In this document: positions 52,701 to 54,883 of the stretch, in pieces | Layout: every line of letters starts with the position of its first letter | How positions within the stretch are numbered: position 1 is the first letter of the stretch | DNA from: an uncultured Candidatus Saccharibacteria bacterium | Lineage (GTDB): Bacteria; Patescibacteriota; Minisyncoccia; Phycocordibacterales; G965230995 | DNA: 64,000 nt | Direction: 5' to 3' | NCBI GenBank assembly: GCA_965230995.1 | Contig: OZ246398.1 | Coordinates: 656,213-720,212, forward strand | The notes under the pieces: generated by a model | Databases searched by the model: none | Told to the model about the DNA's origin: nothing | The model's input: the letters and a program-made list of their open reading frames with translations, nothing else | Program-made: the position numbers and the translations under genes

Positions 52701-52901
52701 GGTGACAAAATGGCGTTTTTGAGACTGGCAGACAAAAGCGACAGTATAGAATGTGTAATGTTTCCGAGAACGCTCGTACAATACGGAGCGGTGTTATCAA
52801 AAGCAGTTACAATTGCCATTAAAGGTAAATTTTCAAAAAGAAACGACTCTCCAAGCATTATTATAGAGGCCATAAAGGCCATGGACGAAAAACCGTCCTA
52901 A
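49701..52901 (+). CDS. dnaE: DNA polymerase III subunit alpha
   Basis: N-terminal PHP domain (FVHLHLHSHYSLL), polymerase core and OB domain. 1066 aa. Confidence 0.95.
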   Translation: MSKFVHLHLHSHYSLLNALPKVKEIVKACVANNMKAVAITDNGNMHGAIDFYKKCTEAGIKPIIGVDFYLASRTLHDKQPGIDTERYRLVLLAKDITGYRNLIKLSTTGYVEGFYYKPRIDKEILTKHTEGLICISPSFSGDISKALRHDDTKKAEDLVSYYKNLFGEDFYIEITHHPEIMGHEEHMEKLIDFSKKLNVPIVGAHDVYYINPEDHSARETLITVGTGSISSGNIGDGGEEDFSFISSKKAEELFKNTPEAIENIEKIVNKCNLTLELGKWTFPKYPINEGESYDDILREKAYEGIKKRGLKETPELTTRVDYELSVIKQKGYSSYFLIVSDLLKHAKDAGIVSTTRGSAAGSMVSYLTYITTVNPMEYKLPFERFLNPERPSAPDIDMDIADDKRDDMINYAKQKYGEDKVAQIGTFGTMMARGSVRDVARALGFSYNEGDRIAKLIPMGSQGFPMTISRAIEMEPELKEIYEKETEAKEIIDMAKKIEGCARHISVHAAGVVIAPSPLTDYTPLLLDPKGGKLITQFNMHAVEDAGLVKFDFLGIKNLAILSDAIKRVKKIAGEIVDLDTIPLNDIKTFEMLARGETIGVFQLSGTGMTKYLKDLKPTNIHDINAMVALYRPGPMESIPEYIKRKYNKHLIEYLDPRMKDILDQSFGVITYQDDVMMIAIKLGGYSWLEADKLRKAMGKKIPEEMEAQKKKLHEGLLKNGMSESKAKELWALIEPFAAYGFNKAHAASYGKVAYQTAYMKANYPAIYMSAVLTADSGDTEKIAEIIGECKHLKIPVLPPDINESYEPFSVVTKDPNKEGDVDKIRFGLVTVKNFGEHIAHIIVEERKVNGKFLSMQDFLERIKDRNLNKKSLEALIKVGAFDSFGERGMLLANLENLLAYNKENNKRETDQDSIFGLMQDTSTVPGLKLQNFPPVSESIRLSWEKELLGLYISGHPLNAHANTLRAKPNIKYLKQFSKENDVVKVAGIAEEVKEIFTKKGDKMAFLRLADKSDSIECVMFPRTLVQYGAVLSKAVTIAIKGKFSKRNDSPSIIIEAIKAMDEKPS

Positions 52902-52924
52902 AGAGGGTTTGTTTAATAAAACCT

Positions 52925-53105
52925 TGCATAACAATAGAGAATACATATAATTAAAGTATACGAGATTGTTGTGGCTACCAACCACAATTCCACAATCGGA
53001 ATCGAAAGACTAATCGTTACAAAACAAGAACAAAGTTGGGTGGAACCGCGATTTGACTCGCCCCGACAAAAATGAATTTTTCATTTTTGTCGGGGCGATT
53101 TAATT
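52925..53105 (+). promoter_or_regulatory. T-box riboswitch leader upstream of thrS (AGAGA box, putative ACC specifier loop, T-box GGGTGGAACCGCG, terminator hairpin)
   Basis: AGAGA at 52935-39. Hairpin TTGTGG-CTACCAA-CCACAA with ACC at 52977-79. AGTTGGGTGGAACCGCG at 53033-50. 17-bp terminator hairpin at 53058-53098 plus TTT. Confidence 0.7.
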
Positions 53106-53125
53106 TTTAATTTAATTTATAAAAT

Positions 53126-54883
53126 ATGAAAAAAGAAAACGATGAAAAATTAGAGAACTTGAGGCACTCCCTCGCCCACCTGCTTGCAAGTGCAGTACTA
53201 AAAAAATATCCGGATACCAAAAATACAATTGGGCCTGCTATTGATAATGGTTTCTATTATGACTTTGATTTTAAAACCCCAATTTCAGACAAAGATCTAA
53301 AGGATATTGAAAAGGAAATGAAGAAGACTCTGAACAAATGGACAGAATTTACCCACAAAGAGGTTTCAGAAAAAGAGGCAAAAGAATTTTTCAAAGATAA
53401 TCCATACAAAATAGAGCTCATTGATGAAATCGTCGCAAAGGGTGAAAAAATAACACTATACACCTGCGGTGATTTTACTGATCTCTGTCGAGGTGGTCAT
53501 TTAGAAAATCCAAAATCAGAAATAAATACAGACGCTTTCAAATTGGATAAAATTGCCGGAGCATATTGGAAAGGTGACGAAGAAAACAAGATGCTCACAA
53601 GAATTTACGGAATTGCATTTGAAAAACCAGGAGAACTAGAAACTTTTCTAAAGAACCGAGAAGAAGCTCTTAAAAGAGACCACAGAAAACTTGGAAAAGA
53701 AATGAGTATTTTTGCTTATGACGATGATGTTGGTCCTGGTCTTCCCCTTTGGCTTCCAAACGGTGGCGCGATTATAGAAGCCCTAGAGTCTCTTGCAAAG
53801 GAAATGGAATTTCGTGGCGGATATAAACGCGTAAAAAGCCCCCATCTTGCAAAAGAAAATTTGTACCTAACAAGCGGGCATCTGCCATACTACAAAGAAA
53901 GTATGTATCCTCCTATGGAATATGAGGGTGGAAAATATTATCTAAAGGCGATGAACTGCCCTCATCATCACAAAATTTACGCTACAGAAAAGAAAAGCTA
54001 CAAGGATTTGCCTTTGAGACTCGCAGAATATGGTACTTGTTATCGTCACGAAAAATCAGGAGAGCTTTTTGGCCTTATGCGAGTTCGCTCAATGCAAATG
54101 AACGATGCACATATATATTGCACCGAAGAGCAATTCTTTGAAGAATTCAAATCGGTAATTGAAATGTATCTCGCCTATTTCAAAATATTTGGAATTGAAA
54201 AATATATGATGAGACTTTCCAAACATTCAAAAGAAGGTTTGGGTAAAAAATACATTAATTCACCAGAATTATGGGTAAAGACAGAAGATATGGTGAGAAA
54301 ATGTTTAGTTGATTTGAATGTTCCGTTTTTTGAAGCCGAGGATGAAGCTGCATTTTACGGACCAAAAATAGACGTTCAGGTTTGGAGCGTTATCGGTCGT
54401 GAATTTACCTTAGCAACCAATCAGGTGGACTTTGCAGTTCCAGAAAGATTCAAACTGACATACACGGACAAAGATGGAAAAGAAAAAACACCACTCTGTA
54501 TTCACAGAGCGCCTCTTTCAACGCACGAAAGATTGATTGGATTTTTGATTGAACATTATGGTGGTAATTTTCCAGTTTGGCTTTCCCCTGTTCAAATAAA
54601 AGTAATACCAGTGAGCGATTCTCATATCGAGATAGCAAAGAAATTCGCAAAGAATTTAACACTTGCCGGAATTAGAAATGATGTTGATACAGGAAATGAT
54701 TCATTTGGAAAGAAGGTCCGAAATGCAAAAACAGAAAGAGTTCCATTGTTTGCAATAATCGGTGACAAAGACATCGAGTCTGGAACTATCACTCTAGAAT
54801 CAAGAGACAAAGGCAAAATTGGCTCTCTCAAAGAATCCGAGATTATAGAAATGATTACAAAAGATATAAAGGAATATAAATAA
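53126..54883 (+). CDS. thrS: threonine--tRNA ligase (lacking N-terminal TGS domain)
   Basis: Class II motifs, the zinc-binding site of ThrRS (CPHHH) and a C-terminal anticodon-binding domain. Confidence 0.9.
   Translation: MKKENDEKLENLRHSLAHLLASAVLKKYPDTKNTIGPAIDNGFYYDFDFKTPISDKDLKDIEKEMKKTLNKWTEFTHKEVSEKEAKEFFKDNPYKIELIDEIVAKGEKITLYTCGDFTDLCRGGHLENPKSEINTDAFKLDKIAGAYWKGDEENKMLTRIYGIAFEKPGELETFLKNREEALKRDHRKLGKEMSIFAYDDDVGPGLPLWLPNGGAIIEALESLAKEMEFRGGYKRVKSPHLAKENLYLTSGHLPYYKESMYPPMEYEGGKYYLKAMNCPHHHKIYATEKKSYKDLPLRLAEYGTCYRHEKSGELFGLMRVRSMQMNDAHIYCTEEQFFEEFKSVIEMYLAYFKIFGIEKYMMRLSKHSKEGLGKKYINSPELWVKTEDMVRKCLVDLNVPFFEAEDEAAFYGPKIDVQVWSVIGREFTLATNQVDFAVPERFKLTYTDKDGKEKTPLCIHRAPLSTHERLIGFLIEHYGGNFPVWLSPVQIKVIPVSDSHIEIAKKFAKNLTLAGIRNDVDTGNDSFGKKVRNAKTERVPLFAIIGDKDIESGTITLESRDKGKIGSLKESEIIEMITKDIKEYK

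Follow-up and report, generated by a model that had tools for sequence, protein, structure and literature searches.

A reduced, terminator-type T-box with a predicted miniaturised decoding module upstream of thrS in a Patescibacteria genome

Is the short leader in front of thrS in this genome a conventional T-box with an unusual tRNA partner, as a preliminary description proposed, or is it the architecture of the leader that departs from known systems? The gene that the leader would control is thrS (53126-54883, + strand, 585 aa), within the 64-kb stretch of DNA that we analysed (the window). Its product carries the Pfam domains tRNA_SAD, tRNA-synt_2b and HGTP_anticodon, in agreement with the original identification of this open reading frame as ThrS, and its homologs bear the name threonine--tRNA ligase. 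The nearest of them carry the taxon names Candidatus Paceibacterota, Patescibacteria group or Taylorbacteria, which assigns the window to a CPR bacterium (Patescibacteria, Paceibacterota). Upstream of thrS, dnaE ends at 52901; gyrB and pheT lie downstream on the opposite strand.

The leader contains a T-box core region, AGTTGGGTGGAACCGCG, at 53035-53051 on the + strand, which is the conserved antiterminator 5′ strand that had been described. An exact search of the window for the core GGGTGGNACCGCG gave this single site, and 100 dinucleotide shuffles gave none. The antiterminator (53035-53067, + strand; GGG-UGGAACC-GCGA...UCGC-CCC) comprises a 6-bp helix A1 (53035-53040 paired with 53062-53067), a 4-bp helix A2 (53048-53051 paired with 53058-53061, loop 53052-53057) and, between them, the 7-nt bulge UGGAACC (53041-53047), whose variable N position is A, as previously read. 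This element aligns with the Rfam T-box model in a permissive local scan, and constrained folding yields the same structure as the Rfam alignment. An intrinsic terminator was called by the scanner at 53058-53108 (+ strand) and consists of a 19-bp hairpin (53058-53098) followed by the U-rich tail TTTAATTTTT; the earlier report of a terminator hairpin plus U-run thus stands, but not its stem length of 17 bp. The 5′ strand of the terminator overlaps the 3′ strand of the antiterminator, making the two helices mutually exclusive, and the U-run ends 18 nt before the ATG of thrS.

One detail of the antiterminator concerns the A2 pair beside the bulge, 53048/53061, which is G-C in the window and G-U in the Rfam consensus (CGUCCC). 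The A2 pair next to the bulge has been described in a review as the steric sensor of aminoacylation (PMC7583486). A C at the same position is also found in several Chloroflexota leaders, and the G-C pair may be ordinary variation.

Comparison with the closest relative, L163 (ThrS 83% identical, leader 93% identical, same dnaE-thrS synteny), bears directly on the switch. Relative to the window, L163 carries three coordinated substitutions, G53038>A, C53064>U and G53092>A. One of these nucleotides, C53064, has two alternative partners, G53038 in A1 and G53092 in the terminator; in L163 the A1 pair G53038-C53064 becomes A-U and the terminator pair C53064-G53092 becomes U-A. Because the three changes are coordinated, antiterminator and terminator are both preserved, and the substitutions are direct comparative evidence for the predicted switch.

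Upstream of the switch, the picture of a leader with all the hallmarks of a T-box breaks down. An RF00230 covariance-model search, which had been suggested as a check, gave no match to the leader at the gathering score of 93; a permissive local scan reached 23.8 bits (E = 0.003), with only the antiterminator credible and Stem I forced into the dnaE coding sequence. The threshold was reached by none of the eight distinct family members tested, whereas canonical Chloroflexota thrS leaders score 94-111 bits on the same model. There is no long Stem I: the K-turn, the internal Specifier Loop with its S-turn, the AG bulge (AGVGA) and the distal loop are all absent, and the predicted transcript offers nothing 5′ of helix P1 (see below) from which a Stem I platform could be built. 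No Stem II is recognisable, and neither a CCGUUA F-box nor a IIA/B pseudoknot pairing is conserved among the lineages. Stem III is absent, as judged by folding, from the window, L163 and L029, in which the 23 nt separating P1 from the UGGA bulge (53018-53040 in the window) fold with ~0 kcal/mol. In place of Stem III the window has an A/C-rich single-stranded linker of 17 nt, UACAAAACAAGAACAAA (53018-53034, + strand), in which only the purine flanks remain, joined as AAGAAC.AAA. Where the window has this linker, six other members form a Stem III with folding energies of -8 to -22 kcal/mol, flanked by GAGUG...AAA.

The beginning of the transcript accounts for another presumed hallmark. A sigma-70-like promoter (52924-52951, + strand) consists of TTGCAT at 52924-52929, a 16-nt spacer and TATAAT at 52946-52951; the promoter scanner was silent on this site because its -35 hexamer matches at only three of six positions. 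The two hexamers are identical in the window and L163, as against 9/16 identity in the spacer and ~95% in the remaining leader, and they are the only blocks conserved between these loci upstream of 52952. In L029, L008 and L022, promoter-like sites called by the scanner end 7-10 nt 5′ of P1, and by eye a -10-like hexamer lies 6-11 nt 5′ of P1 in eight of nine members. Transcription is predicted to start at ~52958, about 2 nt before P1. The letters previously taken for an AGAGA box do exist, at 52935-52939, but since they fall in the unconserved spacer between the conserved promoter hexamers, they are probably not transcribed.

These observations also bear on the possibility that the leader is a canonical class I T-box after all, transcribed from further upstream or by read-through from dnaE, with AGAGA as the AG bulge of Stem I and ACC in the Specifier Loop. 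Such an arrangement is suggested by the minimum free energy fold of the single sequence, in which 52927-52935 pair with 52965-52973 and AGAGA sits in an internal loop just before ACC. We rejected this helix because L163 disrupts three of its nine pairs without compensating for them and does not conserve AGAGA. Given, in addition, that conservation upstream of 52952 is confined to the promoter hexamers, that promoter-like sites abut P1 in three relatives, that RF00230 places Stem I in dnaE and that the window, at 23.8 bits, and the other members tested stay below the threshold that canonical Chloroflexota leaders exceed, we consider a canonical class I T-box very improbable.

To place the leader in a family, we assembled ~170 thrS loci, drawn from species-representative genomes and metagenomes or reached through exact-protein look-ups. 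The loci fall into two groups, one low-GC and Patescibacteria-like (ThrS 61-83% identical) and one from Chloroflexota, mostly Anaerolineae (56-61%). Scans with a regular expression, with R1, a covariance model of three leaders, and with a looser motif identified nine distinct Patescibacteria lineages with a common design: the window (= L001, L002), L163, L022, L029 (= L096), L008, L010, L005, L019 and L007 (= L088). The first core expression, [AG]GNTGG..., had missed members with a CGG/CCG A1 helix, which were recovered by R1 and the looser expression. The common order is P1 (NNAGA/UCUNN), a 5-nt junction J1, the hairpin H1, a variable hairpin H2 and a junction J3 ending in CYAAUC, followed by Stem III or a bare linker, the bulge UGGAACC and a terminator with a U-run. 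Terminators with U-runs are visible by eye in all nine lineages; the terminator scanner picked up three of them (window, L029 and L008) and passed over that of L022.

We propose that the first ~60 nt of the RNA form a three-way junction of P1, H1 and H2. In P1, ACGA (52960-52963) pairs with UCGU (53014-53017), both on the + strand, and the helix covaries over the nine lineages (ACGA/UCGU, AUAGA/UCUAU, UUAGA/UCUAA, ACAGA/UCUGU, UCAGA/UCUGA and UCUCG/CGAGA). H1, the specifier hairpin (52969-52987, + strand), has a 6-bp stem, UUGUGG/CCACAA, and a 7-nt loop, CUACCAA (52975-52981), and is identical in the window and L163. Its terminal loop contains the Thr specifier ACC (52977-52979), followed by A52980, a purine after the codon. 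The earlier suggestion of a specifier hairpin displaying ACC therefore holds as to the loop display, but this loop is a terminal one of 7 nt and not the internal Specifier Loop that a long Stem I would have. Across the family the H1 loop reads CUACCAA, UUACCAA, CCACCAA or CUACCAC, with an 8-nt loop in L005; the pattern YYACCAM, like the bulge UGGAACC, is invariant over the nine lineages. A 7-nt loop of the form Y-Y-ACC-A-M on a 6-bp stem is anticodon-loop-like, from which we infer that the specifier would be pre-stacked like an anticodon and decoded by a loop-loop interaction.

The remaining parts of the junction are more variable. J1, GAUUG (52964-52968, + strand), is conserved as GAUUG, AAUUG or AGUCG. 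H2 (52988-53001, + strand) has the form UUCC [ACAAUC] GGAA, with the stem kept and the loop free to vary between the window and L163; the other seven lineages have a hairpin of unrelated sequence at this place, weak in L019. The purine-rich J3, UCGAAAGACUAA (53002-53013, + strand), holds the start of the CYAAUC motif (53010-53015), which is found in eight of nine lineages. [quoted passage not shown]

Three other pairings were tried and rejected. J1 could pair in the window with UAAUC at 53011-53015, but P1 drawn as GAUUG/YAAUC fits only four to five lineages and is impossible in L008 and L010, and it is the overlapping NNAGA/UCUNN that covaries instead. An outer stem GAUUGU/ACAAUC around the ACC hairpin fails because ACAAUC corresponds to the unconserved H2 loop in L163. 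A IIA-like hairpin, CGA/UCG, with an F-box-like AAUCGUUA is not kept in L029 or other members. Separately, L007 (= L088) carries an extra structured insert of ~70 nt between P1 and Stem III (L007:131-200). The insert holds a second CCCAAUCUAG motif, like J3 and the 3′ strand of P1, and may be a partial duplication.

The comparative support for the module was evaluated in two ways. In alignment A4 (46 columns, nine lineages), fixed-length elements were anchored on the loop and AAUC, and the registers of P1 and H2 were set by hand. Proposed partners are paired in 97.7% of cells, as against 31-44% when they are slid by 1-3 columns, and all 15 pairs changed on both sides; none of 500 shuffles matched these values. 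Because hand-set registers, especially that of H2, enter this result, RNAalifold was also run on the natural sequences of the nine lineages as aligned by MAFFT without guidance. It found H1 alone, with the ACC loop at its apex, six of six pairs compensatory and none broken; in the MAFFT alignment the variable H2/J3 region is out of register. We therefore place less trust in P1 and H2 than in H1.

Two hairpins adjacent to each other 5′ of thrS, one with an anticodon-loop-like loop of 7 nt, could also call to mind the operator of E. coli thrS, in which case H1 and H2 would mimic the anticodon arms of tRNA-Thr and bind the synthetase for autoregulation. ThrRS needs G35 and U36 as identity elements. 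What the H1 loop presents, however, is the codon for Thr, ACC, and no anticodon for it (NGU); the H2 loop is unconserved, and more than 120 nt, a T-box bulge and a terminator among them, separate the hairpins from the start codon. We give almost no credence to an operator of this type.

A different concern is decay. The 5′ hairpins might no longer read tRNA, leaving the 3′ switch as an attenuator that is constitutive or otherwise controlled, for example by a protein or NTP levels. The leader lacks elements reported to be essential (IDTM and Stem III), most related thrS genes have no leader at all, and CPR genomes are reductive, all of which would suit such a relic. Against it, ACC, the loop size and the trailing A are invariant in nine lineages, whereas the H1 stem changes everywhere with compensation, and UGGA is invariant and matches U73 of tRNA-Thr. 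Because ACC and UGGA are invariant and the H1 stem is compensatory, this pattern points to selection on both tRNA contact sites and not to decay, and we regard a relic as unlikely.

The match to U73 also bears on how the bulge should be read. The preliminary description had predicted from UGGA that tRNA-Thr carries U73, which it considered an unusual discriminator. All four tRNA-Thr genes found by ARAGORN in Patescibacteria loci (L019, L022, L029 and L164) have U73, bearing out the prediction in relatives; all four are UGU isoacceptors. In L019, L022 and L029 the tRNA-Thr gene and a UGGA thrS T-box share one contig, and L164 is from a relative whose ThrS is 81% identical. At thrS T-box loci the bulge has N = A in all 13 of the Patescibacteria-like cases and in 75 of the 80 Chloroflexota-like ones, and in 68 of these 80 Chloroflexota-like leaders ACC lies in an internal loop of the canonical kind, GAA(A)ACC. 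Since U73 is the norm in the lineage and N = A prevails in both groups, there is nothing unusual about the discriminator or the bulge; UGGA follows the known covariation with what is, going by these gene sequences, the normal discriminator for the lineage. The GGU isoacceptor, the best partner for ACC, is not among the four tRNA-Thr genes of the relatives. No tRNA-Thr gene lies within the 64-kb window, and no tRNA in the 10 kb beyond the window start.

The window does contain a tRNA gene missed by ARAGORN. At 4730-5115 (- strand) a group I intron (Rfam RF00028, 65.2 bits, 4779-5071) interrupts a tRNA with 5′ half TCCGCGATAGCTCAGCTGGTAGAGCGGTCGCCTGT and 3′ half TAAGCGATTGGTCGTAGGTTCGAGCCCTACTCGCGGAGCCA. 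Splicing placed by eye after U and G gives the anticodon loop CU-GUU-AA; if these splice sites are right, the gene would be tRNA-Asn(GUU) with G73 and an encoded CCA. A 97-aa GIY-YIG open reading frame (5107-5400, - strand) lies immediately upstream. Directly 3′ of the tRNA, a stretch of ~190 nt (~4515-4700, - strand) has complementary ends, GGCTCCGCGAG...CTCGCGGAGCC, and a motif like CR-I of RNase P RNA, GAGAGGAAGGTCTGGGCG; Rfam gave no match to it at E <= 0.01. It may be a reduced RNase P RNA.

How does the leader compare with known T-boxes? Class I T-boxes (RF00230; Bacillus thrS and tyrS, and Chloroflexota thrS at L047, L049, L065, L078 and L082) resemble it in the UGGNACC bulge between A1 and A2, the competing intrinsic terminator, a specifier that matches the regulated synthetase (ACC = Thr, then A) and a bulge N complementary to the tRNA discriminator; the Chloroflexota thrS T-boxes share the gene, the specifier and UGGA as well. 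They differ in their long Stem I (K-turn, Specifier Loop S-turn, AG bulge and tRNA-elbow distal loop), which the window leader lacks, in Stem II, the IIA/B pseudoknot and the CCGUUA F-box, which are not recognisable in it, and in Stem III, which is absent from the window lineage, while the window leader presents its specifier at the tip of a hairpin, in a 7-nt loop, as part of a three-way junction. Its sensing part spans ~107 nt versus ~220 nt in class I, and the RF00230 score is 24 bits versus 94-111 for the class I leaders of Chloroflexota.

Actinobacterial ileS T-boxes with an ultrashort Stem I (class II), compared here by their descriptions in reviews, are alike in having a truncated Stem I without an elbow platform and in keeping the contacts to the anticodon and 3′-NCCA (PMC7583486, PMC12990946). 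Their output, in contrast, is translational, through sequestration of the Shine-Dalgarno sequence, whereas the window leader has a terminator and U-run; the window hairpin does not cover the ribosome-binding region, so an output of the sequestering kind is not found here. [quoted passage not shown] T-boxes of the glyQS type likewise have a short single-stranded linker between decoding domain and discriminator, do without Stem II and are transcriptional, but they keep the full long Stem I with its elbow platform and Stem III, both absent from the window. What sets the Patescibacteria family apart is thus that an ultrashort decoding hairpin is coupled to a terminator, and that Stem III is also missing from three of its lineages.

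This combination runs against published generalisations. Transcriptional T-boxes are held to need the long Stem I platform for fast tRNA capture, Stem III to be indispensable for sensing the tRNA 3′ end, and intermediate or ultrashort Stem I to be a feature of the translational actinobacterial ileS T-boxes (PMC7583486); a 2026 review and TBDB agree with this source on Stem I length. One argument against a functional T-box here is that the leader, whose function is a prediction, lacks the parts reported as essential, the IDTM Stem I platform and Stem III (PMC7583486).

Overall, the leader is a reduced, terminator-type thrS T-box with a Thr specifier ACC, an antiterminator/terminator switch and UGGA. 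We conclude that it is probably a T-box-derived, tRNA-Thr-sensing transcription attenuator of thrS with a miniaturised decoding module. Its function, including tRNA binding and the discrimination of charged from uncharged tRNA, is predicted from sequence. Transcription would start at the leader's own promoter, and the nascent RNA would fold into the P1/H1/H2 junction, in which H1 presents ACC as C-U-ACC-A-A. The anticodon of tRNA-Thr would pair with ACC in a presumed codon-anticodon loop-loop contact. If the tRNA is uncharged, its 3′-UCCA would pair with UGGA and stabilise the antiterminator, allowing A1 and A2, with 6 and 4 bp, to win over the much stronger 19-bp terminator, and RNA polymerase would read into thrS. 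With charged tRNA the terminator would form, and transcription would stop at the U-run before the start codon.

The leader is unevenly distributed among related loci. Motif and model scans found nothing comparable in ~30 more Patescibacteria-like thrS loci, and at the ThrS homologs P0003, P0005, P0007, P0008, P0009 and P0010 a T-box is absent or the upstream DNA is too short. A T-box is missing from about three quarters of related thrS loci; the leader is therefore dispensable in the lineage. In a rough neighbour-joining tree of ThrS, carriers scatter among non-carriers, which suggests that the thrS T-box is ancestral and was repeatedly lost, with transfer as an alternative. Proposals exist that link Chloroflexota and CPR, and the occurrence of canonical kin in Chloroflexota and reduced leaders in CPR fits with them.

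Several further observations on these loci deserve mention. The nearest non-CPR kin of the Patescibacteria ThrS are from Anaerolineae, at 56-61% identity, and in a crude neighbour-joining tree, with support unassessed, some Chloroflexota ThrS nest among those of Patescibacteria; this nesting could reflect common ancestry or a joint transfer of thrS and its T-box. In most Anaerolineae loci a tRNA-Val gene lies directly 5′ of the thrS T-box (for example, L047:7069-7142, L049:1553-1626 and L065:2134-2207), and tRNA-Val makes up 58 of the 76 tRNAs found in all loci together. In L029 the T-box precedes an extra small open reading frame ahead of thrS (L029:9612-9995) that encodes a protein with a MazG-like pyrophosphohydrolase domain (Pfam PF03819, E = 2.6e-6), and in L019 a 101-aa open reading frame with no Pfam match lies between T-box and thrS (L019:1136-1441).

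The interest of this locus lies in its reduced architecture, not in its bulge. No paper on a T-box in CPR, Patescibacteria or Parcubacteria was found among open-access papers and preprints, and a prior description elsewhere is possible. Because the Rfam model misses every family member tested, T-box regulation in Patescibacteria has probably been overlooked. We tentatively suggest, with slightly more doubt than belief, that the CPR leaders are a third architectural class of T-box: the smallest natural ones, acting co-transcriptionally and decoding through a mimic of an anticodon stem-loop, which would sit in a three-way junction and kiss the tRNA anticodon without elbow contact. In the window lineage this class, proposed just as tentatively, would also do without Stem III. 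A terminator-type T-box lacking both the Stem I platform and Stem III would test both generalisations about these parts, and a sensing domain of ~107 nt would be a compact scaffold for engineering. If the third class is real, parts deemed indispensable in transcriptional T-boxes would be dispensable in nature and, considered together with the Chloroflexota thrS T-boxes that share its specifier and UGGA, the T-box lineage would extend into Patescibacteria.
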